From Marsupella aquatica (lineage: Eukaryota; Plantae; Marchantiophyta): 64,000 nucleotides of DNA. The notes under the pieces are model-generated. The model searched no databases. It had not been told where the DNA came from and saw only the letters and a list, made by a program, of their open reading frames with translations. Location: NCBI GenBank assembly GCA_973895155.1, contig OZ316891.1, forward strand, positions 16,767,651 through 16,831,650. The letters are read 5' to 3'. Positions 8,172 to 44,067 of this stretch are shown here, piece by piece (the stretch's first letter is position 1; each line of letters begins with the position of its first letter). Both the position numbers and the translations under genes were made by a program.

Positions 8172-11100
8172 ATGATATGCAAAGACCTAGGAGCGCCGGA
8201 CATCTTGATTGAGATCAATAATTGTACCATCAAGATGGTTCTCATAGACGGAGGAGCGGGAGTCAACATCATGACTGAGGAAACATCAGTCAGGTTAGGA
8301 TACCTCACGTATCAACCCACAGCCCGAGCTATCAGATTAGCAAACGGGGCAAGGATCCTTCCATTGGGCACGCTCACTCGGGTGCTCACTCTTGTAGGAG
8401 GGGTGGAGTTCTATCTCAACTTCCTAGTCATGAGGCCGGTTCGGCCCTCCTCTTATCCGGTCCTCCTGGGCAGACTGTGGCCGAGTAGTCACAGATTGGG
8501 GAAAAAAGGAGCTACGGTTTGGGACACCCACAGTACGAGTATCTTGGGCACTGGATGATTATCAGGGTGAAACCCCAAAAGGACCCAAGGAATAGATTTG
8601 GAGACCTCGGAGGAAGAGGAGCTCAATATGATTGAACTCATTTCATCCCTGTCCGAGGAAGTTGTCTTCGGAGTAGAGGCAACCCGGGAAACACATCTCC
8701 TGAATTACCCGAAGGTTGCTATTGAGTCCACCCCGAGCACCTCTACCGCCCAGACCGATGAAACGCAAAAACGATCCATCAATACGGAGGACACAGCTCC
8801 AGCTAAGCAGGGAGCCGATGCTGCTTCTACCAGTGCAGAGCCTAGTGACCACGAACCGGCCAAAAAACTGCCCGAGGCCAAAAACCCAAGGCCGAGACAT
8901 AAGAAACGAGTCTCCTAGGACCCGTCCATCCCGCAATTGGAGAAATTAACCCCAAATTCAAAACCGATCCTGGTTCCACCCATGTACGGAGGAGTTCGGT
9001 TAGCTAAGCTGGATGCGAGCCTGGACCCGAGCTTGCGGAACCAGGTGGAAGTCATAAGAAAGGAGTACTACCGGAAGTACACCATTGGTATGGATAAGTC
9101 TTTTAACCTGGGCCATGCTCTAACGGGAGGCAGAAAAATCTATCCAAGCACTGCTCAAGGAATATGAAGATGTGTTTGCATGGAGCCATCACGATTTGAC
9201 GGGACTCTCCCCCGAGTTGGGAGAACACACGATCAATTTGAACTTGGGGGCCCATGCAGTATGGCAGCGACAACGTCGCATGAACCCGAGGTACTCCATC
9301 TTAGTGAAGGAGGAAATCGATCATCTCCTCACCGCAGATATCATCTACCCGGTAATGGCCAGCGACTGGGTTTCTCCCATTGTCATTGTACCAAAGAAGG
9401 GAGGTATGGACGGAAAACCTAAGATTTGGATCTATCAGGACTATCATAAGCTGAACGACGCAACCTGGAAAGACCATTACCCGTTACCATTCACAAAATA
9501 TGGTTCTCGATATGGTAGCCCGAAACAAAATTTATACATTCCTTGACAGGTATTCGGATTATAATCAAATCTGGATCCGCCTCTCGGATCAGCTCAAAAC
9601 AACGTTCACTACGGAATGGGGGACGTTCGCATTTTGGAGGATGCCGTTCGGGCTATGTAACGCCCCAACCATGTTTCAGCGACTCATGATGAATATCTTC
9701 CACGATTTTCTACGGGAATTTCTGGAAATATTTATCGACGACTTCGCCATCTTTGGAACCATCGCCATGCACCCCAAACATCTATGACGTACACTACAAC
9801 GATGCCGAGAGGTTAACCTCAAGCTACATCCCGCCAAATGTTTTTTTGGGGTAGAAGAGGGAGTGTTACTCGGACATCGTGTGTCCAAACGGGGTATCGA
9901 GGTGGACCAAGAGAAGGTCGCGGCTTGGATGGCGGTGGTGTTTCCCATAGATCGAAAAGCGGTACGATCCTTCTTGGGCTGTGTAGGGTACTATTGTCGG
10001 TTCATTAAAGATTTTGCTAAAATTGTGTTGCCCTTAACCGAGATGATGAAGAAGGACGCGGTGATCGAGGAGACACCTAGGAGATGGATTGCTTTCGAAG
10101 AACTCCGTAAATGACTCACCACCGCACCTATCATGGTCACCCCGGACTGGAATAAGGAGTTCCATGTGTATGTCGATGTGTTAGGATTCTGTATCGGATC
10201 CGTGCTCAGTTGATGGCTAGCAAAGTAGATGGGGTGGTCATGTCCATCCTCATCAAGCTGACTGAGCATGATAATCTACTCATGTAAGAAGTTCCGGCAC
10301 TATCTGCTTGGCTACAAGGTCATATTCCACACGGATCATGATAGCCTGAAGTACATGGTCAACAAAGCGGATGTGACAGGACGGATAGCCCGGTGGGTGC
10401 TACTTCTCCAGGAATTTAACTATGAAGTTTGGGTTTGGCCAGGAAAGGCACATCTCAACGCCGACTTCTTTTCAAGGTTGGACGGCGTACCAGTCGATCA
10501 GCCAATTAATGATTCTTTTTGAGACGAGGAGTTATTCCACGTAGGGGCGGGAACGCCTACGTGGTACGGCTCAATAATCACCTTCCTCTTAACAGGCCGC
10601 ATCCCCGATGGCATCAATCAGGAGGCCGCCGCTGTGTTTTTATGAAAGGCCGGGCCATACGTCATGATACAGGGCCACCTACACAAGGAAGGAGTTAATG
10701 GGAAGCTACGACGTTGCTTAGAGTACAAGGAGACGCTTATCGTTATGCGGGCCTTGCATGAAGAAGAAGCTGGAGGCCATTTTGCGGCTATCACGACAGC
10801 CCGAAAGATTCTAGATTCAGGGTATTGGTGGCCTACGTTGCATCGGGACATACAACATTTCATCAAGGGCTATGACCTGTGTCAGCGGGCTGGGGCCTCA
10901 AGACAATCTCATCATCACCCTCTCACGTCCGTGCTTCCCTTGGCACCTTTCAAAAAGTGGGGTATTGATTATATCGGACCGTTCACTCCCGTTACCCGAC
11001 GACAAAGATGCAGGTACATACTGCTAGCTATAGATTACTCCACCAAATGGGTTGAAGCACGGGCTACGGTAAAGGACAACGCTGCAACCACCGCCAGGTT

Positions 11101-11820
11101 CTTATACGAGCAAATCTTCACCCGGTTTGGGCCGCCCTTGGAGTTAGTAAGCGACCATGGAACACACTTCCTCAATGATATCGTGGCCCAGCTTACGGAG
11201 CATTACCTAGTCAAGCACCGCAAGACTACCCCGTATCATCCTAAAGCCAACGGGCTAACAGAGAGAGCCAATCGCATCATCGGGAAGATCCTCAACAAGA
11301 TAGTAGCCGCGCACAAAACGGATTGGGATGACAAGTTGTACGCAACGGTGTATTTGTAGAATCTGGCTTACAAGACTACTACGAGTCACAACCCGTACTT
11401 TCTCGTGTTCGGCCAACATTTGTTGGTGCTCGTTGAGTTTGAAGTCCACACTCCCCGGGTAAGCATTCGGGATCGCTTACTCGAAGCTGAAAGTTTGTCG
11501 GACAGAGCTTATCAGATTGAAGCATTAGAAGAAGCACGGCTATTGGCAGCTCAACAGTCGTCAAGCAGTAGGTAGCTTCCAAGAAGTAGCACGACAAAAG
11601 ACTACAGAAGGTCGACGTCGTGACAGGTGACCTAGTCCTGCTGTACGATAGTAGGTACATGCAGTTTCCGGGGAAGCTTCATACCCGTTGGCTAGGGCCT
11701 TTCCTAGTCAATCAGATCTACCCTAATGGATCTTTGGAACTCGCAATGTACGCTGGCAATTTACTACCCACGCGAGTCAGTTACGATCGTGTGAAGAAGT
11801 ACCACCATCAAGACGATGAC
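8172..11820 (+). pseudogene. pol: pol of family A (aspartic protease, RT, RNase H, integrase) with stops and frameshifts
   Basis: LIDGGAGVN protease; WVSPIVIVPKK, RMPFGLCNAP and FIDD in RT; RNase H with KKFRHYLLG; integrase zinc-binding GGHF, WGIDYIGPF, SDHGTHF, YHPKANGLTER and WLGPF. Confidence 0.95.
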
Positions 11821-14329: not shown

Positions 14330-17300
14330 ATGTTCACAAGAACATCCTCCACCCCAAGCATGCATGCTATCTGAAGACCCAGGGGTTTGAGCACCTCGCC
14401 TCTCTCCCTTGGAACGGAAGCAGGTATTACGGGCAGGATATGACGGAGTTCATTCACTCTCCTGGGGGCAAGGGAGCTAAATACTAGTCATCTAGCTTCC
14501 CGGCCGAGGGGGTAGTGGACAATGGGTTCTTAATGAGGATGTGCCTCATCCCGGAGGTAGCAAAACGCCTAGAGTTCCAGCGGTAGCCCTCCACATGATG
14601 GAACCCAGAGGAGAAATATCGGTCGCTCAGGTCATCGAGGTGGAGAACTATCGGCCCAGGAAGTGGGCTCTCTTCTTCGTCAAGAAGTTCCACGAGGAGA
14701 TGGAGCGGAGAAGGAAGACTTTGTACCTTTGGCGGAAAGGCGTACTTCGCTAGCCACGTCAAAATCATCCTCGAGTGGTACGCTTGTTTTGACCGCCAGA
14801 GCCTCCCGCGTCTCAACAAGCCTGAGCTGACCCCGCCAAAATGGGTGTTCCTAGCCCAAGTAAGGCGACCGCAGCCCGAGGCCATAAGTCTGGCAACTGC
14901 AAGTCCTGCTACCCCGGCCCCGCAACCCGCCGCTGCTGCCCCGCCAGGCATACCCATTGACGTTATCACGACCTTAGACACGATCAATCGGGACAATGCC
15001 ATCGAAGTCAGGCCGGATGAAGCCGTACTCAAAGTAGATGCCACAGTAGCCGGGAAGATTCCTCCACCCCCCGCGGTTGTGCAGGAGAACCACCCATCTC
15101 TAGTGGGACCTGCCCGAATCCAGAAGGACACAGTCTAGACCATCCGGAACTCTTTGCGCCGGGCACATTTTTCAACGGTTGTTGGGAGATTTCTCGCAAC
15201 AGATCTCTCGGGACACCGGGGAATACATGGCCCGGAGGGTGGCCTACTTCTTCAACCAGAAGTTGGTTGTGGCAGTAAGGGCAAGACATGCACAGGCAGA
15301 GATCGCGCAGAGAATAGAGCGATATCGGGTTGAGTGTGCCTACCTGAAGGACAAAGTGGCAACCCTGGAGGCTGAACTCCAACAACTACGGCCTCAAGTA
15401 ACGGCCACGGAGGACCAGGTCGCTGAGGCTAGAGCCCAAGCCGCCTTAGCAGTACAGGCCGGGCTCAGAAAGGACGTCGAGATTGCGCAGCTCCGGACCA
15501 AGATTGACGGTTTGCAGGGGCAAGCCGTCAGTTGGCAAAAGGAACTGGAGGAAGCTGACTCCAGGTCTCAACGGGACACAGCCAAGATTGACACCCTGAA
15601 GGCAGAGGTGGCGCGGCTTCAAGGAGAAGTCACAAAACAGGCCCAGTTGGTGGACAAGCTGATGAGCAACACCCAGCAATTGGAGGAGGCATGCCAGGAG
15701 GCCGTGGAAGAGGTAGACGCGGCGAAGCGGGAAAATGAATCTCTGCTGGACCAGGTCCAGCTACTCAAGCAGGATGCCGACAGGCTTAGAAGGCAGCGGG
15801 ATAGCCGCTCCCACTCTGGCGGCTCTGGCAAGCGTGCCAAGCATTAGCGGCGGAGTAGGATTAGAGTAGAGCTAGGAATAGCTAAATTAGGCTATAGGGA
15901 CAAGCACCTACCCTAGTTAAAGCAGCACTGCCATGTCGTACAACCTGCGTAGATTAGGATCTTCTATTAAGACAAGCCATTTTCCGGCCTGACAGCCAGC
16001 TTAGTTAGGACCTTAGTTAGCGAATCTTCGGGCGCAAGGGCACTCCGTTCCTCGGCCCTTAGTATTTAGCGCACCCCTCGGTAGAGGCAGGGGGATTTTT
16101 AGTCTCAGTGTTGGACATCCACGGTATGTGCGGGGAGTCCCAACCTCTAGGAGTGAAAGAGTACCAAGGGAGGGTGTAGGACTAAGCTTGCTAGGCAAGT
16201 GCGGAGCCGGGCTCCATTGTAGTGTACATCCTCGGCCTTGGACCTGTTCATTCCAGGGCTTTCGGGTCAACTAAGTGTACACATATGTCTCCTATGTAGT
16301 AAAATCCTTTCCCACTATTTCCTTTGTGTAAATCAAGATTGTATGCTTGTGCGTATGTATATGTGTGAATCTCATGTATAGGTGCCAACGCTTGGCCAAA
16401 AACACTACCCAAGCCATGCACAAGGTGCAGCTTGCGGGTAAGTGGTTGCAAGCCCGGGTTTAGTACCTATACCATCAAATCCGGATCAAAGGCGGACAAC
16501 ACGAAGGCTTAGAAGCCCGTAAGCCGGGGTCGATCCTGCTATCGACTGAGGTACGTTCCAGCGGTGAAACACAAACCATACCTAAGAGGTGTTCGTATAT
16601 GACAATAGGCGCACTTAGCGCTAGTTTATGTGATTTAGGTGCATTCCGTGCCTCCCTCCCTACCCGAACCCTCATATTGACAAAGGATGTGCCTGTCTAA
16701 GCCGAAGCCCGGGTTAAGGCCTAGGCTGACAACGTGACATGAAGCCAAGCACTTAAATACTACGCCTTGTTTCTTCAGCCGCTCTGTTTGGTTGTCGGCT
16801 CGCCGCTGTAAGTTCTCCATCTTCCTCTTGCTTTCCTACAACTCCTCCTGTACTTCATCTAGGTCCTTGCGTGCCTCCTCCAGCTCCTTTTGGGCTTCCT
16901 CCCATTCCTTCTTTAAGGTAGCCCTCTCCTCCTGGGTTGCTCTTAGCTCTTTGTCGAGCTCCGCTACGACCTCAGACTCCATTTTATTCATCTTGGCATA
17001 AGTTTGATCGAGCTGGTCGTCTTTCTCACGCAGGTTGGCCTTGAAGCTTGTCGTCAGGGATGCAAGCTCCTGGTGCAGCGCAATAATCCCTTGATAGGAT
17101 TTCCCTAACTCGGCCTCCTTCTACTCAAGGGCTCCGCGGATATCCTTGAGTTCCCCCTTCAACGCCCTTTCCCTTCTCTGAGTCTCCGCCATGGCCCGAT
17201 TGGGGGGATCTCTTCGTGACAGCAAATAGCAAACAACAAACAACAAACAGTAAATAGCAAACAACAAAACTCATACAAGCAAATAAGCACCCAAAAAAAG

Positions 17301-17969
17301 ACACTGAAGGATAAGAAAATATTGCCACATATATTGGACAGGAAGCGGCCATTGACTACATTTACACTAGCGTCGAGTGCTATAAGGAAAACATTTGAAT
17401 AAAAACCTCTTTGAACTACCGGCTATAGTAATAGCGTCGGGCGCTACTCTAATCCGACACGTCACGGCGTTCTTATTTAGTGTCGTTGTTCTCCACAAAC
17501 GGGTAAATAAAACAAGGAAAACTAAAGACCAGATCCACAACCACCACTCGACTCTGAGCCCGATTCAGAACCGCTACTTTCTGATCTATCAGTGGACTCT
17601 GCTTCGTCGTCCACATACTTGGATTTTGCAATATCATCTACGAAGTGATTCTGCACAAACTTTTTATCTGAGCCTCTCCTGAGTCTAAGACCCTTACTCT
17701 CCCAAGTAAGCGTCCTGACTGAATCTGCCCGTCGTGCCGCCTTTTCAGCATAAGAGGGGAGAACAAATGGCTTCTCCGGGGTCTATACAACGTTCCTAGA
17801 GACGTTCTTTCAAAGTTGAAAATGCCTTCGAAGATTCCACTCTGACCTGAGAATTTGAACTGGAGTTCTTTAGTTGAAGTCGGGAAATCGGGCAAATTTT
17901 CTAGACAAAAGGGAGTATAGGAGTTCTTTGGAAAAAATTATACAATGAGAGAAAGAAAGCTAAAGAAAA

Positions 17970-20900
17970 TTACTCTTCTGACTCTTCACTGTCCTCATCT
18001 CCAGATCCAAGGTCCACCACATTCTTCGACACCTCATCATCTTTAGATTGCTGAGAAGCATTGCCACCCTCACCCTCGTCTTCCGAATCAAAATTTAGAA
18101 TAGCACGGAGCCTGTCCTGCTTCTTACTTCCAGGAATCTTCTTAGGAGGAGTTGGTGCAACCACTTCTTTGTTCTGTAAAAGATCGAGGAAGACCTTACC
18201 GGAAGTATCAACAAACTCTGGCCGATTTTCCAGCCCAACAACAAAGCAACCAGAATAATCTCCAGCCACAAACGTACTACCGGAACCTACTGTCCAGTCC
18301 ATAATGATATCTCCAGGAAGAGTCACCAATTCCAAAATAGTTTGCATGAAACCCACAGGCAAGCGTGAATTTCCTGCAAATTGGAGCTCAGGAGTCGGGT
18401 CATGTCGCGGCAACAAAAACCCAATAATGTTAGTGACGGAAGGGTCTTCTTCATTCGATAGTGGCCGGAACTTGGGGTCTTTCGGGACCCTTCCCTTTGT
18501 CGAAATGCGGCAAAATATATTAAGAGTAAGTGTGAATATCTGCAACACAGTTTCCCAATGAAGGCAGTATAAGAAAACAGACACATATATTAGCGCTTGG
18601 CGCTAGTCAACCCTTCATCCTTACGAAAGATAAGTGAATTGTAGATATAGCGAATGCTAATAGTAGCGTCGGGCGCTAGTATGTGCAAGAGGAATTGTTA
18701 CCTGAGTATCAGATCGGGGCCTATACATTGGTGTAGTCATGACCACATGGTGGGTTGAAATACACTGGAAACACTTAGAATCCTGGCAAGCCGCAATCAC
18801 TTCAGATACCTGATCATAGTCTCCTCTGTGTAAAATTGCAAGTAGGCCATCGTCTGCCAGGAACGGCTCCATGGCTCGGAAGAAAGAGCTGGGAATAGTG
18901 TAATCCTGAAGGTTCCACTTGGGAACCTTCCGATCAAGAAGTGTTGGTTTTAATCCAGTGGGAATGTAGATGAAACCAGCATCCACACCAAAGCCCCTCT
19001 CTTTTCCTCCATGAATTACTCCCTTCTCTCTATCTCCTGACTTTACCAATTCCTTTCCCCAGGCCTCAACTTTAGTAACCCACATGGGCTTCATCCCCTT
19101 GTTAAATACCGAATCATAAAATTTGTTTAAATTGGACTCCACAAAATAGTGTCTAGAACACCTTCGCTTAAAATTCCCGACATCTCTCTGGAGTCCATAG
19201 GAAATAACGTCTTGAGTAGATGATGCTGCTCTATCCTCACCGGCGCCTCTCTTTTTCTTTTTCTTTGTGCTAGTTGCGTCAATAGGGACAATGGATTTTC
19301 CAGCACCATCCGGGGTCCCTTGATCCGGGGTTTCTTGAGCTCTAGTGTTTGCCTCCGATGCCTGAGGAGTTGCATCATTCTTCCCTTTGGCAGCCGGGAC
19401 CTCCGTGTCGGACTTTCGACCTCCTGTTAGGCACAAAAACTTGCATGAGTCCAACCTTTCAGACTAGCGCCAGGCGCTATTAATCAAAGGAATTTCCAAA
19501 TGTAACTCCTGCATAAGCAACGCCAACAAGTAACCAAAAAGCGCTTAGACTACTCACTTTTCTTGAAGGACCTTGTGGAGTCACTTGGTGCAGCTGACTC
19601 ATTCTTTGCCTTTGCTCTTGGCTTACGACTTCGGTCAACGTGCATGACAAGAGACTCACAATTCTTTTGTAACTCAGAGGCAGATTCGTCAACATCAGAC
19701 TGGAGACCTTGCTTCGTTGCAGTCACATAGTTGGCAGGGATCTGGGACTTCTGCAACTTCATGAAGGCATCCTTCTCAGCTTCGTCGAACGGTAAATCCC
19801 ATTTGTCTGTGTAGAGGTACCATGGACAGTGAAGTCTCTCCCACTCCGACAATGAACGTGGTGGAAACTTTCCCTCCGCTGGGTACATCGAATACAGGTC
19901 AAAAATAGCGTCTCCCTCTTCAATAGACACCCATTTCTGAAATGCAGCCGGGTATGCCCATAGAGTGTCAGGAGATCTAAGCTCCATCCACATGTAAAAC
20001 CGGTATAGATATCGTTTGGCTCTCTTCCGGATCCGCTCTGTGTAATCTTCCTTGTCGGCATATTTGGAAGGCCACAAGTTGTTGAAGAATTTTGCCTTGA
20101 CAAGATCCCCAAAGTTTCTGAATTCATCGAGAATGATCTTAAGCATGGCCTCTATTGACTCACACCCAGACTTTGTGAGACGGTCAGCCGGCATCCGGTC
20201 ATAAATCTGTTTGAAGGAAGTGTGAAGCATTCCAGTTGCAATTCCCTCCACAATATTCCAAGTATGCCATGTATGGCACCACTGCTTCATAGGCTCGTCG
20301 TTGACACTTGCAAGATGGAAAAACTGTTTCCGAATCTCGGGAGTGCAGTGGGCTACTAGAAGGGTGCACCTCAATTTTGGATCTAGGTATGAAACAGCAG
20401 TAAACAACCTGGCTCGATCCATTGTGCATACAACTGTGTCTGGCTTCTTCTCCCGTTTGTTCTTCTTAGTTACGGGATACATCTCAGCACAGGTTCCCAA
20501 ATAATCTCCAAAATCCGGATGAAGTAAAGGGGTGATGTTCATCACTTTGATCGACCAATCTTTGGTCGCCTCCTTCATCATTGCCTCATGCCTCTTTGTG
20601 GTCTCCTCTTCTGACCAAGGAGCCCCTTGAGCTTTGGCTAAAGCCATATCAGACTTAAATTGATTTGAGTAAGACTTGATTTTGTCCACACACAGAATGT
20701 AGATGAGAGTATCCTGTGGCATTTTATGTGTAAACCAAGACCCCTTTCTTGTCTTCTTTTGGATCGCCTCAAACTTTGCCATGTTTGCGCTGTCGATGAG
20801 TGGCTTATAGTGATCAAGATCACGCGACAGAATTTGGGAAATTCTGTCCGCGTCAAGAATCCAAGAAGGCTCGACGACTGCTTGTCCAAGCCTGGATGCA

Positions 20901-21581
20901 ATGAAAAGGAATTAGTAGCGCCGGGCACTAGCAAAAATTGGGGAATGAACACTTTTGCAAAGCATGTTTGGTCCAAAATGAATGACCAGGGTTACAACAG
21001 TTAACGAATAGAACTTACTGGTTCACGGTGTGCATTGCCGCCTCGAGCTCAACTAGCGAACCTCTGTCACCATTGAAAATGATGCAAATCACATGAGGAT
21101 GATACTTCAAGTTGTCCGGATTCTCCCTGGTGTTGATTGACCAGGAGTACAATCGATGATTTCCGTCAAACACACAAAACATTTTATCTTTTAGAATATG
21201 GAACGTTGGGTCCGCATCACACTCTTCCTCAAACTTGTCGTTCTTTGCGACCCAGATTGGATCCCAAGAGTCCCGGATATCGCTGGTGCATATCTGAGGA
21301 ACCCCATCGGCATTCGCAGGCTGAACGTAGAAAGGCATCCCAATGCGCGAGTTGTACTCGGTGACCCAGAATGATTCTTTCAACTTCTCAATCGATGCAC
21401 TTTCTTTCTGTAAGGTTCGAACAACCTCCATGGGGAGCAATCTACAAAGAGGAATTTGAGGTGGCTCCTTATCGAATCCTCGAAAATCCTTCTCGAACAA
21501 CAATGCGTGCTTTGATATTACCTCATCCATTGATAAGCCAATGTCACTAACTTCACCCATGGAGACCTCCTTAGGGTCCAT
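17970..21581 (-). CDS. Spliced ParB/Srx-domain plus DNA amino-methyltransferase-fold fusion protein, 1062 aa (exons 21581-21019, 20891-19558, 19423-18702, 18539-17970)
   Basis: Three GT-AG introns join four ORFs in frame with no stops (3189 nt). N-terminus has IPLCRLLP..VR, KLKESF, FDGNHR and terminal VN (ParB-like). C-terminus has RLPVGFMQTILELVTLPGDIIMDWTVGSGSTFVAG..SG..VVGLE (motifs X/I of N6_N4_Mtase). Upstream VDAGFIYIPTG and FLADDGLLAI occupy the motif IV/VI positions (beta-class order). Confidence 0.8.
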
Positions 21582-22879
21582 TCTCCCTCTCCTTGACCTC
21601 GGGTAGGGCTATGCAGATTCAGGTTTGGAAGTTGATAGGGATGCAGTCGATCAAGTGACGCGACGGGTGTATATTGAACCAGCGAATGAAGACTGAGAGG
21701 ACTCAGAATGACCACCATCAGCCTCCCCCATTCTCGTATCACCCAGCCAAAAGTTGTCGTGGAGAGCGACTCGACCACCCGACACTGTCGTACGCGCCGT
21801 GCAGTTCTTGTGACAATCACGTCTCAAAATGTACGGGACCAATAAAGGACGCACATACGCACTTGAAAAACTTGTACAGTCCGAGGTCTGAGCGCTTAGA
21901 CGGACTAAATTATCCCAAACGAGCGATCTCCACCTCGTATTAAGACACCGATACAATGGACCCACCCATTCGATTACAACGGTCCCAAGTACAGATGGCA
22001 TTCTCTGATTGGACTTTCATCCCAGACAAAAGCAAAAAGGGTTCCGTGAACCTCAATCTACTATAATATTACCGTTGGAAAGTGACCGTTGGAACCACAT
22101 CAGTGTTGGTAGTTGTGGATAGCGCCAGGCGCCATTATACAACATACCTTCAAATGTATCTGAAAAACCGTCTTCATGTAGATACGGGCAGTACTGTCAA
22201 TACTATTCTCTATAAATTTTCCAATTTTGTGCAGGTGTTGACAAGCCAACTTTAGTAGCGCTCGGCGCTAGTATTCAAATAAATGATGAAATCGGAGTCC
22301 AATGACAACAAACATGACCACATGAACCCATTCATTCAACGAATATTCCAATGAATTACAATAGCGCCTGGCGCTATTAAAATGCACATCAATTGAACAG
22401 AATTTGTTGAAATAAAAGTAAAAAATAACTCCAAACGGGTCTGACTTGTGATTCCTTTAATTAATAGCGCCCAACGCTATCAAAAACAATTTAAAGATAA
22501 GACATGTCACGACAGTGTTAAGGACACTTTGTTTCTCATAATAGCGCCGAACGCTACTAAAAACATTGATAGCAAACGAGTGTTTACAACAATTTCAAAG
22601 AAATCGATCAGGTTTGCATTCAGAAATACAATGCTAACACTGGAGTAGAACCGGAAATTAAAGCTTGGTATTCTGAATTCAAAAGCATTGACACCGATGT
22701 AAAAATGAACGGTTGTGCCGTTCATATACAAAATGTTACAGTACACTAGAAATCCGGCATACGATGAAGGAACGGTATGCATTTTCTATCGGAAAAATGT
22801 GTGGAAACAGATCCTATCAACCTCGATGGATCCTCCAAGTCTCTCCAGCACTCGAACGATATGCTCTGACAACGGGAAA

Positions 22880-23308
22880 TCAGTCTTCCCACCAACTTGG
22901 CTTGTACGCATCGGAGTCGTCATTCGAGTCGCTTGATCCATACCACACAAATCCTTGCCTACTCGGTGATGAGTCCCCGCTCGAAGAATGATCACTCTTA
23001 GTGGATGAAGAAGGCTCGGAGACACCCGTGCAGATAGTGTCGGCTCTCGGACGGCCGACTAAAGCAAGGGCGATATCCCTAGCGGGAACAGAAGTCGGGC
23101 CGCTTGGATTTGGCCGACTGGCTCCTTCGCTGTGGCCTGCAGGTGGGGCATTCTTCGTCTTCGAGATGAGTTTGCCCTTCTTCGAGATTGGAACCGTCAT
23201 CCTCTCGGCATTCGGCCGAGGCGGTAAGCTATTTGATGCGGGGGTCTCCCGGTCGGTGTCGCTTGGGACAAGTGCCTCCTCCTTTGCCTTCCCTCGTGGA
23301 GGTGCCAT
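22880..23308 (-). CDS. Small S/P-rich ORF (142 aa, MAPPRGKAKE...) in the MULE; separate gene or upstream exon
   Basis: Open frame with basic and low-complexity content on the same strand as the ParB-MTase gene. No recognisable domain. Confidence 0.35.
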   Translation of the reverse strand: MAPPRGKAKEEALVPSDTDRETPASNSLPPRPNAERMTVPISKKGKLISKTKNAPPAGHSEGASRPNPSGPTSVPARDIALALVGRPRADTICTGVSEPSSSTKSDHSSSGDSSPSRQGFVWYGSSDSNDDSDAYKPSWWED

Positions 23309-24071
23309 TGAAAGTGAGGATGAGAATGAGAACAAGAAGCGCAGACAAGAATGCGAACGAGGACAAGAGCGCGAACTAGGACGAGAATGAGAAACGAGGA
23401 CGAGAACGAGAACAAGAACGCGCACGAAGCAAAATAGAACCACTGGGCCCAAAAGCAAGAACAAGAACCACGCGCCCCAAAGATGAGCCACAACTGTGAC
23501 TCAGTGAAGAATGGCTCAACAATGAGGTTATCGGAGAAGAACGGCGAGATATAAGGAGAATTCGCACTTGGTCCAGGGTACCCACTTCGAAGAGGACCCT
23601 CTGAGAGCACTTTCGGAGACGCTTCCTTTCTGATACATTTGGACCCGGGCGGATCGGATTCACAAAGATCCAGTGGAGATCTTCAAGTGTGCCAACTTAA
23701 TGACTCGTATTGTATCGCATTATCGTACTTTTCCTTCCATTGAATGTTTTCAAGTCCATTGAAATAGGTAGCGCCAGGCGCTATTATTAATTGCCTTCGT
23801 ACTCCTCACCCAGAGGTAGCGCCAGGCGCTATTATTATTGGCATTCGTAGTCCTCACCCAAGAGTGTTTTACACTTAGAGGTAGCGCCAGGCGCTAGTAA
23901 CTATGAACCCAAATCTTGCCATTGGTAAGACGACAAAATATCATTGATGGAGTGCGTCCAAATCTATAACGACTCTATAGTGAGAATGAAACGTTTACTT
24001 CTCGTACTCGAATCTCATGATAAACATATTTCATTTCGCGCGGGGCAAAGGCATATCCCTCTTTTGAAGCC

Positions 24072-27000
24072 ATGGCTCAAAATATTGTTGTCACAAGGAA
24101 GGACACTCGGGATGTAATCACAATTCCCGTCCTTGAATCATCTGAATCAAAGCGTGTTTCAGAGGAATATTTGGGAGTGAGATTTGATGTCGCCAAGGAG
24201 TCTATTTTAGCAATCTTGTTAGTGTCGGTTTGTTTGGGGAAGACTCCAGTTTTCTACGATGTTGTTCATGGTCAAAGGTATTGGACTTTGGAGGCTCAGA
24301 AAGAATATGAGGTTTTTGTTTTGAGAGATTCTGGGGCCTCCTGTACTTGTCCTCCCACAGCGGCTGAACTCGATGTCATTGAACTCTCGGAAAGTTCTAG
24401 AGATGATAAGCAAGCGACAACTACTCTCGGAGAGAAGATTCCAGTTTACCCATCCGAGGTTAAAAAGGAGTGTAATGCGGATCGAGAAAAGATTGTGCCT
24501 TTAACTGTGTACCGGCAGAGTGCAATGGATACAATCTTGAAATCCAAAGGTCATAGTGAATTGTCTCGGTTTATAAGGGGGAGTGATTTTGTTAATCACG
24601 TAGTGCCTAGTCTTCCCACATCTTACAATGGGAATGTGGTTTTTGAGTTACCCCCGATAGACTGTGTGAACGCTGGTGAACGTTTGAAAGATATGGATCG
24701 TGGTAAGGATTGTTATTATTGGACTCGGATTCTGAAAACGTCTTCAAATGTTCTTCCGAAGAAAATGTGGGATTTTGGGAAAGTCCAGTGTACCGGATCG
24801 CTGCAGTGTCGAAATAATGCTTGTCCGTGGTGGAAAGACAACAAGTTTCAAAATAATGAGATGTGGGCAAGAACCCCAAAACTTTCAGGCCCATTCCGAG
24901 TTGGGGAATTGATCTCCGAAGGTGGAGTTGTTTGTCACCATTGCTCCGAACCTCCGATGTGCATTGAGGCTTGCCCTGCTCTAATGTTCTACATGAATCC
25001 ATCTGCGAAAGTTGACGTTAAGTCTTTGGCCCACATGTCACGACTAGCTGTTCATATGGGATTTCACAATCATCCCAGTCAACGGGTCTTTTCGAGGGAG
25101 GCAAAAAAGGTTGCAAGGTCTCATCTGGAGAAGGGATTCACTGCAAACCCCATGGCATCCCCAGCAGGGATAAAAAACTCTACGACTGAGACACTGACAA
25201 ATACATTTTGCGAGGCCTCTGTTGAAGAAATCTCTCTCGAAGAAGAGAAGGAAATTTGGGAGTCCCTGATGGTCGTGGCATCTCCTCAGAAGTTTGCATC
25301 TATGTTAAGGAGTGTCCGTCAAGATCAGAAGGGGAAAGGGGAACTGGAATTTCTTGTGAGGATGCAAAAGTGTATCCGACTGCCTTTTCTTCATAGGTTC
25401 TTGCTCCCTGGTCAAGGCTGTCGGGACGAGAGTGCTCATATCTTTAAAATGATCGTAAAAGGTGACGAGAGTGGTCTGGACCTGCTCCAAAGAATGAAAT
25501 CTGGTGGGTCGTTAGAGGGTTCATGGGTAAGTTTTGACGTGATGCATCGAAGCACGGCAGATTGGCTTACTTTTAGTGCCCATGTATATGATCATCATTA
25601 CCGGGCACTTTGCACCATATTCACTTGTGAGCTAAAGGCCGAAGATGCAAAATCTCTGGAGAGAGCCTGGCGTTTGATGCTAGAGGTTGCCAATGAAAAT
25701 GGTTTAGAGGATGTTACAATTCAGGGATTCATGGCAGATAATGCTCAGGCTGGTTGGAATGTTGTTCGAAACGTGTTCTTTGACGGTGTACCCGACCCAG
25801 AGCGAGAAAGATCAGATGCCTTTCATTTTTTCCAATCTTTTCATCGTCATTCCCAAGAAGGTGTGAAAGATGGAAAGCACGGAGAGCACAAGGAGATGTG
25901 GGATCGTCTTCGGAACGTGCCAACTTTCTTGAAAGCATATCGAATCTCGAGGGAAATCGATGACTGGTGGAGGTCTGGCAATTGTCACTCAGGCAAACTT
26001 CGGATGCTGCAAGAGTGGCTGTCTTGGTGGGTTGTTCGATGGAGACAATGGGGGAACTTCATAAGACTGGTGAGTTATACACTACTCTAGGATGCATGTT
26101 CCCATTAATAGCGCTCGGCGCTAGTGAAGCATGTGTGAGATAGAAGAGTTCCTTATCCGCAAGAGTAGCGCCGAGCGCTAATAATCCGTTTGGACTATGA
26201 GTGATGTAAGGACTTACTTTATTCTGTGTTCAACAATTCTTTACATGGAAATATCATCATTAGTTTATTAGCGTCTGGCGCTACTGTTATTTCCATTGTG
26301 TTGCCACTTTTGTGTGCAATGTTTCAGAGCAAGAGTGCCGAAGAAGTTGGGATGATTCCTAATTGTACTGGTTCAGAATCTAGGCATGCTGGAATGAAAG
26401 CATGGCAACAGAAAAAAAGGTTGGTCTGTTTGAAGGATGCAAAACGGACCAAAATAGAGCGGTTGCTCAAATTGCTGCTTATACTGCATACAAAAGGGGA
26501 TTGAGCAGAGGAACTGGCCCAACTATTTTTGAGCTTGCCTTCAAATCGGCAGACCTGGTGGGGTCACCGCGTCTCTTTGAGGAAGCCACCAATCTCCTCC
26601 TGTCAAACGCTGCTGATTTTGATTTGGAAAGAAGCGTTCTATTGAATGGTGATGTTGTAACTCGATCGGTGAAACGAAAAGGACATGCAACTGGGAACGT
26701 CTCGGCAGAAGACTCGCACAGGCATGATACCATCCTTGTTACTTCACCAAATACAAAAGGTTTGAAAAGGAGAAACCTGCATTCCACTGATTTTGAGAAA
26801 ATGCCTTCTACGCCTTCAGCCGGTGGAATTGATGCGGTCCATAATTTGTCAGAAAGCGATGCTTATGAGGAAGTTGTGGTCATTGACACACCTTCGCGTC
26901 AAGCAACAAGATCCTCTGTCCCACCAGTGACCCCTGCAAGACCTGTCGAGACTGCATATTGTCATTCAGTTTCCCCAATGGAAAGTGAAGTACCTCCCGG

Positions 27001-27853
27001 TGCCTCACAGTTGCGTCGGACCTCAAAACGGGGTGCGGGTCCAGTGTGTAACAGAACCCTTGGACGGGGAGGTAGTCGTGATGAATGTCGAAATCGAGTA
27101 AAGAAGGTAGGCCTTCCAAATCCAGATGGTGTTGTTGCAATTTCTGTGAGAGGATGCAAAATGTTCAGGGGGCAACCTTATAACAATCAGATATGGTTTT
27201 GCCCCAACAACCACTGTCACCAAAGCACAACAAGGAGAGGAGTCTCGGACATTCCCAATGTTCCTTCACATCTCCCAATTGCCAGAGGGACCAATCTTTG
27301 TGGAGCAGAGATTCAATTTTTGAAAGAACAAGGACTTGTTCTCTCTGAAGGCCGTGGAGATGAAATCGAAGCACCGTTGCCTTCTGTGTTACGGATTGAT
27401 GTCAATCTTTTCCCGGAGAGGATCAACCTAACTGACCCATCTGTGAGGTGTGCTTCAAGGAACAGGAAGAAATGCTTGCAAAGAGTGCATCTTACCCAAA
27501 CACATTTGAAGAGAATTGAAGCCTCTGAAAAAGAAGTGATGAGCGTCATTGGAGAGAGAGAGATCACGAGTGGAAATGCATCGGGGAAACAGTTTTGTAT
27601 CCGGACCCATGAACATGAGAGATCAGTCGCCTCTTATTGGGTTCAGATATGTTGTTTCCCATGTTGCTCCTACGAGGATTTCTACCGTCGGCATACTTAT
27701 TGGAAGCCTTACATGCCTTGCAAACATGTGTATTGGGTGTTCAAGAATGTGTTCAAACTAGATGTGCTCAATTCGACATTATGTAGCCAACCAATTCTAA
27801 CGTTGGGAGAAGTCCGTTACATACTTGATAGGCAGTTGGGAACGAGAATGTAG
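24072..27853 (+). pseudogene. MULE-type DDE transposase with GCM/WRKY-like zinc domain and C-terminal SWIM finger (intron 26070-26327; one frameshift near 26412-26418)
   Basis: CTGSLQCRNNACP...CHHC...HMGFHNHP; SFDVMHR; GFMADNAQAGW; ERSDAFHF; after the intron PNCTGSESRH (catalytic E region); SWIM-like CCSYEDF...PCKHVYWV. Confidence 0.8.
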
Positions 27854-28152
27854 ACTGTTGCTTTATCGTTGAACAGCTACAATTGTAGTTTGTCTTTTCT
27901 AACGGGCAGAAGTGTGAGTTCTTAAAGTGTTGTTTTTTTGTATAATACAATACGCGCTAGTATTGTATGACTTTGTTTTGACTTCGTATTTCGTGGCAAT
28001 ATATTGGAGTCCTTGTGTGAAATAGTCAAGAAATTTCCTCTGATGTTGTACAATGGTGGGACCCACCATAATATTGTCCGCACAATTATTGCATATATGG
28101 ACGCTACATACCCTGAAGAGAAGAAACTAAAATGCATACAAGAAAAAAAATA

Positions 28153-28286
28153 CTCATACAAGAAAACAGAAACTCATACAAGAAAACAGAACCTCGTACG
28201 AGTAAATAGATATGCTCATACGAGGAACTTGTTTACTTGTACGAGACAAAATTTTGCTTGTACGAGGCAAAATTGGCTCGTATGAG
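28153..28286. repeat. Subterminal array of seven CTCGTACGAG-type 10-bp palindromes spaced 20-22 bp apart
   Basis: Copies start at 28153, 28173, 28193, 28215, 28236, 28257 and 28277. Confidence 0.85.
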
Positions 28287-31200
28287 AATATCTATTTGCT
28301 ACTTGCTAGCACGATGGTTATACCCGCCCGATTGTTGACTGCTATGTGGGCCTCCTCTGCATCCCTCAGCTCCCGCTTCCACTTCTCCCTTTCCTTGACC
28401 GCATCGGCCAACTCCCCCTGGGTCCAAGTCAGTTTATCCTTGATAATCTGATTATTAGACTGAGCGGTATCCAATTGCCCTTGCATGATGTTTAGCTCAT
28501 GCCGCTTAATCCACAGCTCATCTTGGGCTTTCTTGGCAGCCTTCAGGTCTTCTGCCTTGGCTACCTTCTCTCTAAGCCGTCGGATGACCTCGTCCTTCTT
28601 TCTTCTCTCCAAAGCCATCGCTTCTTCCAATCGGCGTTTCTCCAACATCTCCCTCTGGAAAAAAGGTCCCTGCTCCAACTCCTCCCCAAAGATGTTGAGC
28701 GCAAGTTCCCCACACATCTCCCCGTACTCCATGGCTCTTTCTTTAGCATAGGTGGAGTGAGTAGAAGTCATCGGCATCAACCACCGTGGCCTTTGTTCCC
28801 AAGTCGCCTTTCGTATTTCTTCTATCGTGGCTGGAGGGCTGCCCCGTCTTTCTGCAAGCCGCCGGATGTCTTCTGGCCATTCTCCCCCAAGTAAATCCTT
28901 CTCCCTAGCCGGGGTTGCCTCCTCTTCTTCCCTGAGTCGGTCCTGAAACTCCTGTGCCGTCTGCTTTATTCTGTCAAAGCTTGGGGGGAGCGACATCTGG
29001 TGGGGGAGACTCGGGGCTGCTCTGCTGGGTGGGGTCCCCTCAAACTACTCTTGGAAGCGTGGGGATGAAGCGGCCACAGGTCCTTATTCCTGGGACATGA
29101 TGGTCCAACCCATAGCTGGAGTCATCATTGCCGTAGTCCTCCACCACCTCCTCCCCAACTTGGACTAACAACTCCCCTTGCTGCTCTCCTGGTCTTGCTG
29201 TGAACATGGCTTCCTTCCGATCATAGCTCACAGGTCCTAGTTCCTCCTCCGGCTTCCAGGCTGTCTTCTCCCTCCACTTACAGCAAACAGGAGCTTTAGG
29301 CTGCTTTCCCTCGGCTTCGGGACTCGAGGCTCCTACATACATTCTAACCCCCGGCTCATGTTCCGGCCTCCTTCTTTCCTTGGCTTCGGTAAAGGGGTTT
29401 TCCTTCATGAGTCGGCTTAAGCCGACCTCTGAAGGAGTGTCCTGTACCTGTGCCATTGCCGTTGCCATTCTCTTTTCCTTCTCCAGCAATTTCAGTAGAT
29501 TCTGCATGCCTGGTTGCTGCATCGGCAAGTCCTCCGTCCTTGGCCTAAACACCTGCTTGATTGTAGGGCTGTCGGGCTGGTTTGGTTTCTCTATTGCCTG
29601 CCTCTATTTTGGAACCTCCTCTGGTGCCCTTGCCTGCAGTGGAAGTATCGGGGTAAAGATCTGACTTTGGGCATACCGGCACAACAGCGGATGTGATAGC
29701 CAAGCCGGGACACACTTCCCATGCCAATGGCCTGCTGTTCCTCCTTCAAGATCTTCTTCAGTTGGGTGAGGAGGTACCCGTTGTAGTCCCGGCTTGGGTC
29801 TAGCCTCTCTGCCAGGTATACTTGTGCCTTGCCGATCTCTGCCCTTGGCAAGTTGCAGTGCATGGTGACCCGCAAGAAATCAATCATTTCTCCGATGTGC
29901 GTGTTGGTGCAGGTGTTTTGAAAGAAGCCATTCTTTGTTGATGGCCCTGGAAACGACCAGAACTCCTTGTCTAGCAAGGTCTTCCAAGTATCTACTTTGG
30001 TCTTATTGCCCATCGGCAAGCCAAACACTTCGGCAATCACCCGGGGAGTGAGATGGAAATCCTTCCCATACACCCTTGTGGAATCGGTCTTGGGCTCCCA
30101 AGATCCCACAAATTCTAATAAGTTTGAATCCGGCACCTCCGGCTTCAGCCATGGTAATTTCACGAAGGCTTCCAAGCCAGATCTGGCCATGAAGCCCTGG
30201 TACTTCTGAGTCTGCATAGCCGTAAAGCATGCATCCTCTTCTTGTGCAAAGTGTAATTGCACTTCCTCGGGGAAGTGTCATCTCTTGTTGGAACGGCATT
30301 GATGGGGTCGACCTCCTCTTCTTCGGCTTCTCCCTGCCTCCTACTTCCCTGCTCGGCTGGCTTCCTGGGTGCCGCCGACCTCGTTCTCCTTGCAGAGGTG
30401 GTCTCTTCGTTGGCGTTCCCTTTTCTCTTCATAGCTGCTATCGTGGATGTTTCTCCGAGGATGGTTGCCTTTGTCCACCCCTCCGTGCTACCCTTCAACT
30501 CCTAGTGTATGTCGTTGCAGCGGTTGATGGCTTCCCAGATGCCGACTATTCTGTTCTCACAAAACAGAAGGTCGTCGAGTTCGTCACCAGTAGGTGTCCA
30601 CGGGAATTCAACCATGATGAGTTCTCCTCCTAAGAAGGTGGACTTCTGCAGCTCCCACAGTCAAGCGAGCTCCTGCCATTCTCAAACAGCTCTCTCCAAT
30701 CTTCGTCCTCGTAGGTCCCAATGTACTTAGTTGCCCGTTCTAACAGGCATCCCCAAAAATGAGCAGTTTGATTGACGTTGCTCATACCCTTCTTTGAATT
30801 GATAGTCGGTATCTGCTCCCGCCCCAAGTGCTTGCCTAAGCAACTGACAGTAGTTGGCTTCACGTAGTCATCTGCTTAGTTCGTGCTTGCAATTGAGCCT
30901 TCATTCCTTGCGATCAATCCTTACCCCCATCTTGCCTGTTCTTCCTTCCCGTTAGTTACCCATAGCCACCGGTACTTAGCGCGCCCTAACCCTAATCGTG
31001 TTCCCTCCCCCGGCGTCCTTACTTCCGGCCTCGGCTCGGGTTCCATAGCTACCCTCAATTGTTTATATTTTTCTTGTTTTTTGTTACTATACTAATGTGT
31101 TTCCAGGGTACACTCCTGATTTTTACCATTTAAACTGGCCTAGTGATTCCTGGCTAGGCATCACAGAAGGGTGAGGGGTACAAGCAACAGCAAGCGACCA

Positions 31201-33627: not shown

Positions 33628-36600
33628 GCTCAATTAGTGTACTCCAATCGGATTTTGTATATTTTGGCATGTGATCGACTCAAGATCGATTACATTAGTG
33701 TCTTGCACAATACTAGACCAGTAGGACTAGGTGGGGTGTAGCGAGCCATCTGGTTTTTATGGAAATGACCCCTAGTAGTCACCTGTCAATAGCGGTGTGC
33801 TAGTTGGCACCAAACATTTTGTAAACATAATTTATATAACTATACAGTCAGTGAATTTGTATTGAAGTAGCCATCAGTCTCAAGAGTCTGAGTTTCCAAC
33901 TCAATGGGAAACAATGATGATGAGCGTGCGGAATTTTGTAAAGCAAAATTTTGACTGTGGCAACATCCGGAAAAGTTCCTATGACCAGTAGTGCTTGCTC
34001 TACTTCAACTTGACAAACTTGGGATGATCTGCAGGTGTGGTACTAAGCACCGGAGGTCGGACGGCCAATAGCAAAGACATGACCAAAGCTTCACCTACAA
34101 AATTCACTGGTACGTTCCGCAACAGTGATTTATTTAGAGTTGAATAGGAAATTATTTAGGGTTGTTTCTTGGTTCTACAGTTATTTTATCAGGTGGAATG
34201 TGCTTTGGCGAACAGGGCTTGTGTTTGTAAAGGTAAAGCATGATTTTGGTTTTGTCATTTCTGCTATAGACATAGGAATTGCTTGCAAGGCCCATTGAAT
34301 TCAAGGAGACCATTGAGGAGTGACTGCCTCAATGGAGGCTGCTGGATTTCATCGTTGGCAGTCTAGCGCTCTTTGAAGGAGAAGCAGGTTGCCTGTGAGG
34401 GGGGGGGGGGCTTGGAACTGACACCCAATGGCAATGAGTGCTTAGAGCCATTGAGTCATAGTTGTTGGGTGGTCCTGGTTAGGAGCTTTGGAATGAATCT
34501 GTTCCATCCGAGTGTGTCTGTGAGTAAATTGGAGACTGTCCACCATACATGTTGAGGAGATTGATTGGAGTGTAGGGCCTAGCCTCGACTGCACATGGAC
34601 CAAGCACATAGAGAAGCTACGATCAATGGGACAAGCTTAAACGGGACAAGCTTAAACTAACCATGTGCAAATCCCAATCTCCCTTGTGCTTACACTGAAA
34701 CTGGAGTCCTTGCATGCAAAGGGTACAACCCTTCCCACCCAAAAGGAGAAAGGTGCAATGGATCTTGAACTTGGCAATGATCACGAGAAATGGCCGGGAT
34801 GGGGCAAGGCCCTTGTGGGATTGGTCCAGTGAATGTGGTCTCAACAGGTGGGCTGCTTTAGGTCAGTCTTTGTTAGAAACCCCATTTCTGCCACTCCTAG
34901 CTTGCTGGTCTGTCTGAGATGTTTAAATAACTTACTTCGGTGATTTCTAATCGAAATCATCATAGTTTTTGAGTCGACGTTCATGCTCCTTTTGTCTTCT
35001 GAAATGTTTGCAGGCCCGTGGGAGGTGGATGTAGAGTCGTCAGAGTGTTTCACAACATGCCCTCTGCCACTGTATTTCAAGTAGCCTCAGAGTCCGGAGA
35101 ACAAAAACCGGTGTCCTCATATAGTTATAGGAAAGGGGAAACCTTCGCAGATGCCAGACAGAAGTTGGCGGCACACTTTGATTTTGAGTTCCAATTCATA
35201 GATGTCAATCTATCTAGTAGGATGCGTGAGTCATGGGAGGTAGTAAATTCCTTAGAGGATTGTGGGGGAAAAGTGATCATCATCCCCAAAAACCCCAGGG
35301 ATGCTGCAAACTTGCCTATCCAAAGTAAGGCGGTTATGTCGCAACAAGTCCTTGGAAGCAGCAATGCCTCCAATGGGCCTGATATCACAATAAGTGATGA
35401 TCTTGCTTGGGATCGTGCTGGTTCTCCCATATTGGAAGAACCCCCACTTGAACAGTCAACACCAGACTATGTTGGCCCATTGGAGGAAGCCCGGGAGGAA
35501 GCTGACCCCCAGGTCACTTTGGAGTCGGAGTTAATGACCAATGAATTAAAGAGGACGTGGTCTTCATGTGTAGAAAAGTTTAAGGATCATATGGAGTCAA
35601 TACAATGCGCTCACCACAAGTGGAGGGTGAAAACCTGGGACAAAGACAATGTGCCATGTGGACACATTGAATGTTGCGAGTGTGACACTCGCCATGATGG
35701 GTCAGCAAAGGGTTTGATGGATAAGACATCCATCAATAATGCCTTCACCAACTTCAAAAAGAAGCATCTGATTTCATCAAAGCATGTCGCCCGTGTGGCA
35801 TCTAATAGGGGTGAGAGGCTGCACTCTAAGGAGGTTGCACGGAGGGCTCAAGCAAATACATTGACTGATCGAGCTATACTTGAGCAACACCTAAAGATTT
35901 TGCACAAGGTTAATGAGTCTCAAACTGTCGGGAGAGAGACTTTTACAGTTTTAGGTGATGTGGAGAAGGACCCCTTGGAGTTACACAAATTCAAACTTTT
36001 GTGCAATTTCTGTTCAGAGCACCTTGTGCTCATTCCAAAACAACGGAATTTGGAGCCCAATCTTGAAAGTCTGTCACGTCGTCAGCCTAGGCCTTAAGCC
36101 GGGTTTCGGCTTAGACAGGCACATCCTTCGTCAAAATGAGGGTTCGGGCAGGGAGGGATGCACGGAATGCACCTAACTCACGTAAACTAGCACTAAGTGT
36201 GCCTATTGTCATATACGGACACCTCCTAGGTATGGTTTGTGTTCCGCCGCCGAAACGTACCTCAGTCGATAGCAGGATTGACCCCGGCTTACGTGCTTCT
36301 AAGCCTTCGTGTTGTCCGCCTTCGATCCGGATTCGATGATATAGGTACTCAACCCGGGCTCGCAACCACTACCCGCAAGCTGCACCCCATGCCCGACTTG
36401 GGTAGTGCGTTCGGCCAAGCGTTGGCATACACGAGATTCACACATACATACACGCACAAGCATACAATCTCAATTTACACGAAGGAAATAATGGGGAAGG
36501 ATTTTACTACATAGGAGATATATGCGTACACTTAGTTGACCCGAAAGCTCCGGAATGAACAGGTCCAAGGCCGAGGGTGTGTGGTGCGTCCCATGGCTCC

Positions 36601-43869: not shown

Positions 43870-44067
43870 GGGAGACTCGGGGCTACTCTGCTGGGTGGGG
43901 TCCCCTCGAACTACTCTTGGAAGCGTGGGGATAAACCGGCCACAGGTCCTTACTCCTGGAACATGATGATCCGACCCATAGCCGGAGTTATCATTGCTGT
44001 AGTCCTCCACCTCCTCTTCCACTGCTTGGACTCCCGACTTCCCCCTCTGTTCCCCTGGTCCTGCCGT

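Follow-up and report, generated by a model that had tools for sequence, protein, structure and literature searches.

Several transposons are known or proposed to encode proteins that act on their own family. In the brown alga Ectocarpus, the element Sola1-1_Ec32 carries a 1104-aa gene with ParB and N4/N6 methyltransferase domains opposite its transposase, and both self-binding and modification have been proposed for it (PMC12477816). In the red-algal Plavaka elements of Bostrychia, the ParB-like PAG3 adjoins arrays of inverted repeats and self-binding has been proposed; homologues are reported from Mutators of Chondrus (10.1101/2025.02.11.637652). For VANC21 of the Arabidopsis transposon VANDAL21, sequence-specific anti-silencing has been shown, and its motifs are family-specific, lie in introns and between genes, and co-evolve with the protein (PMC5735166). 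Among ParB-type proteins, VirB is an anti-silencer (PMC10770331), and Srx is named as the common eukaryotic member of the fold (10.1101/2025.10.10.680097). Here we describe a Mutator-like DNA transposon of 11.1 kb in a 64,000-nucleotide stretch of the genome of the liverwort Marsupella aquatica (contig OZ316891.1; the whole stretch is called the window below). The element carries a transposase gene, a divergent accessory gene whose predicted product joins a ParB/Srx-like domain to a methyltransferase (MTase)-like domain, and 17 copies of one short palindrome. We propose, with a probability of roughly 45%, that the accessory protein serves family-specific, VANC-like self-recognition; that is, it would bind its own palindrome and likely shield the element from host silencing.

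A first-pass annotation of the window had counted 17 palindromes in the element, and this count held. We found 14 copies with exact TAGCG-N5-CGCTA arms and three with one mismatch, and none in the remaining 52.9 kb of the window. By chance 0.08 copies are expected, and the maximum in 200 simulated sequences was one. All 17 lie in non-coding DNA, seven of them in introns (P ~1.5e-7 under even placement), and each of the four introns (three in the accessory gene and one in the transposase gene) contains at least one. Both a chance repeat and a tandem array in the window are ruled out. The extended word is TAN-TAGCGCC-N-GGCGCTA-NTA, in which the five outer arm bases are nearly fixed (arm positions conserved 33-34/34) and the inner positions are variable. 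Hence, the palindrome has the conserved arms and variable centre expected for a dimer site. The five central bases often read CCWGG or are CCSGG-like, probably from palindrome symmetry; we take such words to be targets of bacterial cytosine methylases.

The palindromes might also be bound by a host factor, or have arisen through local duplication and have no binder, and this we consider most improbable. Tandem units of 51 to 140 bp hold the sites in several relatives, as this account would have it; however, most of the window palindromes have unrelated flanks, the arms resist CpG decay (2/34 arm CpGs changed) and the palindrome word changes wholesale between clades.

This change between clades emerged from the relatives of the accessory gene. 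We found 213 relatives of exon 1 at E <= 0.001, and the named ones among 10 checked matches are from Riccia sorocarpa and Adiantum, with full-length relatives in Riccia and partial ones in Adiantum. Riccia gene models match exons 1-2 at E 1e-51 to 1e-59; P0021 additionally spans exon 3, and P0160 (1207 aa) has the entire architecture. The Adiantum model P0130 is annotated with an added NIF/FCP1 phosphatase domain, which may be a gene-model fusion. A search of prokaryotic genomes and viral contigs gave no relative of the accessory protein, and phage matches were weak (E 0.04).

The loci compared here come from a metagenome contig scan (the best 80 of 81 related loci, grouped into 54 clusters). 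The pairing of gene and palindrome first noticed in the window recurs in these relatives, with different palindromes in different clades. When we examined up to 3 kb of DNA ahead of the ParB domain, 16 of 32 zones (counting the window) had one gapped palindrome in at least three copies, vs 0 of 35 control blocks, which are flanking DNA of mixed kinds and not matched promoters. The words include GGTGCC-N6 (L006, 13 exact copies), TTCGG-N2 (L009) and GCCGT-N2 (L026), as well as ATGGT-N7, ATGTG-N6 and AACTTT-N8. The last of these is present in at least three exact copies in 8 of the 10 loci of one clade (Shimodaira-Hasegawa-like approximate likelihood ratio test, SH-aLRT, 99), the remaining two loci being ~2 kb long, and is absent from 31 of 32 loci outside it; the other, L051, has two. 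These placements refer to a quick tree of 64 rows, from which loci with <100 aligned residues, L051 among them, were excluded. At L051:8202-9527, the ParB gene is preceded by 18 copies (<=1 mismatch) of ATGGT-N7-ACCAT, and the MTase part of this locus resembles the AACTTT-N8 clade, with two exact AACTTT-N8 sites kept; this may be a motif switch or a separate insertion.

In this proposal each family would protect only itself, and this would account for the joint divergence of protein and palindrome, as for VANC and its motifs. We also compared ParB exons between copies, and the ratio of nonsynonymous to synonymous substitution rates (dN/dS) was 0.04-0.11 in four intact pairs from the L006 clade, whereas two pairs of decayed copies gave 0.33-0.42. 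These ratios indicate that the accessory-gene family is under purifying selection.

Several observations weigh against self-recognition by the accessory protein, and the mixed nature of the control blocks is one of them. Six of the window palindromes sit at the transposase, three before its start, in the promoter, and three in its intron. Half of the upstream zones (16/32) are without a clear palindrome, as are four clades of decayed copies; 6 of the 16 palindrome-positive zones belong to the single AACTTT-N8 clade; and two motifs are mixed in L051. Moreover, since gene, transposase and palindromes are inherited together, their co-divergence cannot name the binder. There is also a precedent for a different binder, as the Mutator transposase AtMu1, itself a sequence-specific activator, alone binds motifs, activates and hypomethylates its family, though with its peaks at the terminal repeats (10.64898/2026.08.24.746577).

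The six palindromes at the transposase and the AtMu1 precedent both fit an alternative in which the palindromes are transposase sites and the accessory gene is a conserved cargo with another job. We judge this unlikely, in view of the terminal position of the AtMu1 peaks and of the following results. In L062, 7 of the 8 sites precede the ParB domain by 0.8-1.8 kb, and the transposase, 4-6 kb away, has none near it; in L064, where both genes are present, the sites are likewise at the ParB gene and not at the transposase. Four further loci (L030, L043, L048 and L077) retain sites and the ParB gene with no transposase detected; 6 of 20 locus clusters have a transposase of the same type upstream, in divergent orientation. 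In addition, the element has a distinct subterminal motif, CTCRTAYRAG, that is available to the transposase; a scan of the window found one match to it outside the element, at chance level (at 11101). This separate motif favours self-recognition by the accessory protein.

The N-terminus of the accessory protein had been annotated as ParB/Srx-like, and this was upheld by a domain model of exon 1, by structural matches, by the Foldseek ranking and by its DGNHR motif. The model has a predicted local distance difference test score (pLDDT) of 92.4, and 11 of 48,161 chains matched it at Z >= 2; the top nine matches are to Srx, KorB, PadC, pNOB8 ParB, SerK, Atu1540, SbnI and Spo0J. Srx was best (Z 6.6, root-mean-square deviation (rmsd) 3.6, 89 aligned), followed by KorB (Z 6.4, rmsd 2.8, 93 aligned). 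Foldseek ranks 1-10 comprised Noc, ParB, PadC and Srx, with weak scores (best E 0.03). In alignment A1, the DGNHR motif is conserved at G (68/71), N (70/71), H (64/71) and R (59/71). Hence, although the scores are modest, the concordant matches to the model and the near-invariant DGNHR identify exon 1 as a ParB/Srx fold. Searches of PDB sequences with exon 1, A1, P0161 and A4 gave chance-level rows only, and word-index searches with exon 1 (longer proteins) and with the MTase half of exon 3 gave no matches. Clusters in a protein atlas with DUF3723 (31%) and ParB_N (11%) are a lead only.

The likeness to KorB, together with DndB as the commonest weak Pfam match of the family (4/71 members, best E 0.066), is relevant to the possibility that the palindromes are operators, at which a KorB- or DndB-like repressor would limit its own gene and the transposase and so restrain copy number. 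In most relatives the sites are indeed densest immediately ahead of the ParB gene. Promoter control, however, would not need sites in every intron and beyond both 3' ends, which span the entire element, and we think this explanation decidedly unlikely.

The middle region of the accessory protein (exon 2) was modelled as all-helical (mean pLDDT 70.6), with no meaningful match among solved folds, and when profiles were compared with 77 bacterial ParBs, even the ParB domain itself was missed. Hence, a helix-turn-helix (HTH) is neither shown nor excluded by these comparisons. By eye there is an HTH-like likeness in this region, which we do not claim, as it has no solved-fold or profile support. 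The CTP-driven sliding clamp suggested at first pass was not backed by our results, as HTH and dimer domain are not demonstrated and many ParB-fold fusions bind ATP, GTP or no nucleotide; among 28 purified ParB-fold proteins, 11 bound nucleotide, and this was not always CTP (10.1101/2025.10.10.680097).

The C-terminus is a beta-order amino-methyltransferase fold, as had been annotated. We found a match to PF01555 in exon 4 (E 4.4e-6, above the cut-off, profile positions 164-219), a match of the same exon to PHROG DNA methyltransferases (E 5e-6) and the motif I that binds S-adenosylmethionine (SAM), DWTVGSGST, at 18299-18273. Corroborating these matches, Riccia P0161 aligns with a phage beta methylase over ~200 aa at 21% identity, with the catalytic motif preceding the SAM motif. 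Among the relatives, 14 of the 21 locus clusters with 3 kb downstream have an MTase-profile match after the ParB exon and on its strand, and none has one on the other strand; the profile was partly built from the same loci that it was scored on.

The catalytic motif of N4C/N6A methyltransferases is [DNSH]PP[YFW] (PMC4738411). At the aligned motif IV, phage DLPY corresponds to DLPT in Riccia and to YIPT in the window (Y codon 18968-18966), and other relatives have DMPS, DIPE, DVPS, DCPM, DCPV and DVPR, with DVPF in one Adiantum model. The family thus has D-x-P followed mostly by a non-aromatic residue, and nearly all members depart from the standard motif. Since the catalytic motif is altered across the family, methyl marking by the accessory protein, as first supposed, is doubtful.

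For these reasons we hold it quite unlikely that the protein loads at the palindromes and, as an active amino-methyltransferase with a non-standard active site, writes N4-methylcytosine (4mC) or N6-methyladenine (6mA) over the element, the more so as the known eukaryotic 4mC enzymes retain SPPY. Such marking would be consistent with the conservation of motif I, D-x-P and the following P-x-W-N stretch from liverwort to fern and in many loci, with the DVPF of the Adiantum model, with the 4mC enzymes of Marchantia and rotifers, and with the common occurrence of ParB-N6_N4_Mtase fusions in phages (10.1101/2025.10.10.680097).

In the self-recognition that we favour, a dimer of the accessory protein would use its helical middle region to read the two TAGCG half-sites. 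The ParB domain, as a nucleotide-binding domain, may be the switch for loading and spreading, or for bridging of sites, and the methylase-like domain would probably bind SAM, or flip or cover cytosines, rather than transfer methyl. The outcome could be local protection from methylation or activation of both divergent promoters; by analogy with VANC, it may be anti-silencing. A more far-reaching version, which we think unlikely, is that land-plant Mutator families run a ParB/parS-style clamp, with nucleotide-gated loading at a private palindrome, spreading, and a repurposed methylase fold (a base-flipping shield or a non-standard writer) that excludes host 5-methylcytosine (5mC). There would then be many orthogonal, co-evolved pairs across liverworts, ferns and relatives.

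The element itself, annotated as 11.1 kb between target site duplications, was confirmed by its 9-bp duplication, by empty sites and by multiple copies. Elsewhere in the window, two further copies of the host repeat have GCCCGATTG once and lack the element, and contigs of three of four runs (X1, X3 and X6) connect 17193 directly to 28326 across it. We found pieces at 80-100% identity that cover 29 or 30 of 30 element bins in all four runs. Hence, the element belongs to a multi-copy family, as all four runs hold pieces along it. An assembly artefact is ruled out by the empty sites and the sibling copies. The two ends share 20 of 30 terminal bases. Target site duplications of Mutator-like elements (MULEs) are 8-11 bp, and MULEs without terminal inverted repeats (non-TIR MULEs) are a recognised class (PMC6446971); the 9-bp duplication falls inside this range and the degenerate ends fit the class.

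Splicing from the ATG at 21581 with GT-AG introns (21018-20892, 19557-19424 and 18701-18540) reproduced the four-exon product of 1062 aa that had been annotated, but its start is probably not the true one. The reading frame continues 50 codons upstream to the ATG at 21731, interrupted by stops at codons 27 and 41 (21653-21651 and 21611-21609), the second of which is CAG in other copies, and the leader that starts at 21731 resembles the leaders of the nearest relatives. From this comparison, the real start is probably 21731 and not 21581. Of the related loci, 45 extend to the end of the exon, and 38 of these have GT in the same phase at junction 1; both junction 1 and junction 3 can be aligned to gene models of Riccia. 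Junction 2 is the least supported of the three; it lies at the low-complexity linker, with three frame-keeping acceptors within 39 bp. The conserved introns rule out a bacterial contaminant.

The transposase reading frame of the window copy breaks in an A7 run (26412-26418), where other copies carry one more A. Hence, given this frameshift and the two leader stops, the window copy is probably dead in both genes. Its intactness was not borne out, and an intact active copy is ruled out by the same damage. The features are collected in Table 1.

Table 1. Features of the transposon and their positions in the window.
Feature	Position	Strand	Details
Mutator-like DNA transposon, multi-copy	17203..28325		11,123 bp; GGG...CCC ends; degenerate terminal repeats
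Left target site duplication	17194..17202		9 bp, GCCCGATTG; identical on both flanks of the element
Right target site duplication	28326..28334		9 bp, GCCCGATTG; identical on both flanks of the element
Accessory gene, exon 1	21019..21731	-	probable start 21731; S-rich leader, then ParB/Srx-fold domain
DGNHR motif	21153..21167	-	conserved G-x-x-R phosphate-binding motif of the ParB fold
Accessory gene, exon 2	19558..20891	-	conserved all-helical middle region; candidate DNA-reading part
Accessory gene, exon 3	18702..19423	-	basic low-complexity linker and N-half of beta-order MTase fold
Accessory gene, exon 4	17970..18539	-	C-half of MTase fold, SAM-binding motif I, acidic tail
Transposase, exon 1	24072..26069	+	Cys/His-rich N-part, FDVMH and FMADNA aspartates, DAFH (DCFH in a relative); motifs by eye
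Transposase, exon 2	26328..27853	+	GSESRH glutamate, SWIM-like end
Possible small third gene	22510..23308	-	unconfirmed, between the two main genes; broken in two frames (MAPPRGKAK start, later protein-like frame)
2 palindromes, downstream of accessory gene	17368..17446		starts 17368, 17432
2 palindromes, accessory-gene intron 3	18591..18678		starts 18591, 18664
1 palindrome, accessory-gene intron 2	19465..19479		
1 palindrome, accessory-gene intron 1	20916..20930		
5 palindromes, upstream of accessory gene	22120..22556		starts 22120, 22256, 22362, 22465, 22542
3 palindromes, upstream of transposase	23769..23896		starts 23769, 23817, 23882
3 palindromes, transposase intron	26109..26283		starts 26109, 26166, 26269
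Relic of 18th palindrome, downstream of transposase	27950..27960		completed by 9 extra bases in other copies, where the palindrome is at 27953
CTCRTAYRAG, single copy near left end	17270..17279		
CTCRTAYRAG, 7 copies near right end	28153..28286		second motif; candidate transposase sites

For the transposase, we found six relatives at 43-53% identity, and comparison with Pfam and the PDB brought up no MULE family. Its D, D, (C/D)xxH and E motifs were assigned by eye to what we take to be the MULE-type DDE class, and CCSYEDF...PCKH near its end presumably resembles a SWIM zinc finger, a pattern without Pfam match. Hence, the Mutator-like assignment follows from the by-eye motifs and the 9-bp duplication. 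The possible third gene had no Pfam match and no match among the related loci.

Among the relatives, L006:3-731 (-) holds an open reading frame (ORF), divergent from the ParB gene, that looks by eye like a transposase N-terminus and was missed by the profile. In L053, an ORF of the CACTA-type Transposase_21 (1861-2523, +) precedes the ParB gene by ~3 kb, both being on one strand; CACTA elements may also carry the ParB gene, comparable to the algal genes that move between superfamilies. Target duplications were sought around the related loci, and chance candidates only were found.

The element sits in a host repeat, segments of which lie at 16739-17202, 28326-31166, 36575-43872 and 46292-48274 (82-90% identity). 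The depth of this repeat is far above that of the element, and its coiled-coil ORFs are without a family match. Elsewhere in the window, zf-CCHC and integrase ORFs at 6735-7634 and 10646-11359 mark a remnant of a long terminal repeat (LTR) retrotransposon.

Two algal genome papers of 2025 proposed, without testing, that transposons encode ParB-type proteins that bind and modify their own DNA, and the family described here brings this idea to land plants amenable to cultivation and transformation. It offers several natural pairs of protein and palindrome whose words differ, which makes a direct comparison of cognate and non-cognate binding possible. With the methylase-like half conserved but the standard motif absent, the issue becomes less one of marking than of reading or shielding. 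If our proposal is correct, the system would stand next to VANC as a second anti-silencing system of independent evolutionary origin, and may be the first case of a DNA clamp of the ParB type acting in eukaryotic chromatin.

Compared with bacterial ParB/parS, KorB and VirB, the accessory protein shares the ParB/Srx fold with its G-x-x-R motif and the use of short palindromic sites (10.1101/2025.10.10.680097, PMC10770331). Unlike in bacterial ParB, its ParB domain is enlarged by a helical insertion, an HTH and a C-terminal dimer domain are not demonstrated, and there is no ParA. Its amino-methyltransferase fold is of the prokaryotic beta-order type, as in phage ParB-N6_N4_Mtase fusions, MpDN4MT1 and rotifer N4CMT, which likewise lie within or close to mobile elements or come from eukaryotes; those proteins keep DPPY, DLPY or SPPY, whereas the family described here does not.

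VANDAL21 with VANC21 resembles our element in being Mutator-like, with degenerate ends, an accessory gene and family-specific non-coding motifs. It differs in that VANC has DUF1985/DUF287, that its motif is a non-palindromic 9-mer and that its anti-silencing is demonstrated (PMC5735166). No accessory exon and no full-length Riccia model had a Pfam match to DUF1985/DUF287.

With the algal proteins, the accessory protein shares a ParB-like domain fused to a modifier fold and carriage by a DNA transposon; the likeness to Sola1-1_Ec32 and PAG3 is one of described domains. Like the Sola1-1_Ec32 gene, ours is of similar length (~1100 aa there), has ParB-like and N4/N6 methyltransferase domains and lies on the strand opposite the transposase; that element is of the Sola superfamily, and the passage that describes it names neither a palindrome array nor an altered catalytic motif (PMC12477816). 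As with PAG3 and PAG2, a ParB-like accessory protein stands beside inverted repeats, with a PF01555 domain in the same cassette. In contrast to our gene, PAG3 fuses ParB to a 2-oxoglutarate (2OG) oxygenase, the methylase and SET are encoded together by another gene, and the repeats are tandem arrays beside the gene in red-algal CACTA elements, whereas ours are dispersed through all introns (10.1101/2025.02.11.637652).

The idea of self-recognition is therefore not new, having already been proposed for the Ectocarpus and red-algal transposons. The ParB survey contains no match for 'transpos' or 'plant' (10.1101/2025.10.10.680097), and we found no earlier land-plant report of such a transposon system in the literature covered, to which Repbase, subscription journals and Iyer et al. 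2011 did not belong. What is new here is the land-plant Mutator lineage, along with palindromes specific to its clades and a catalytic motif lost across the family.

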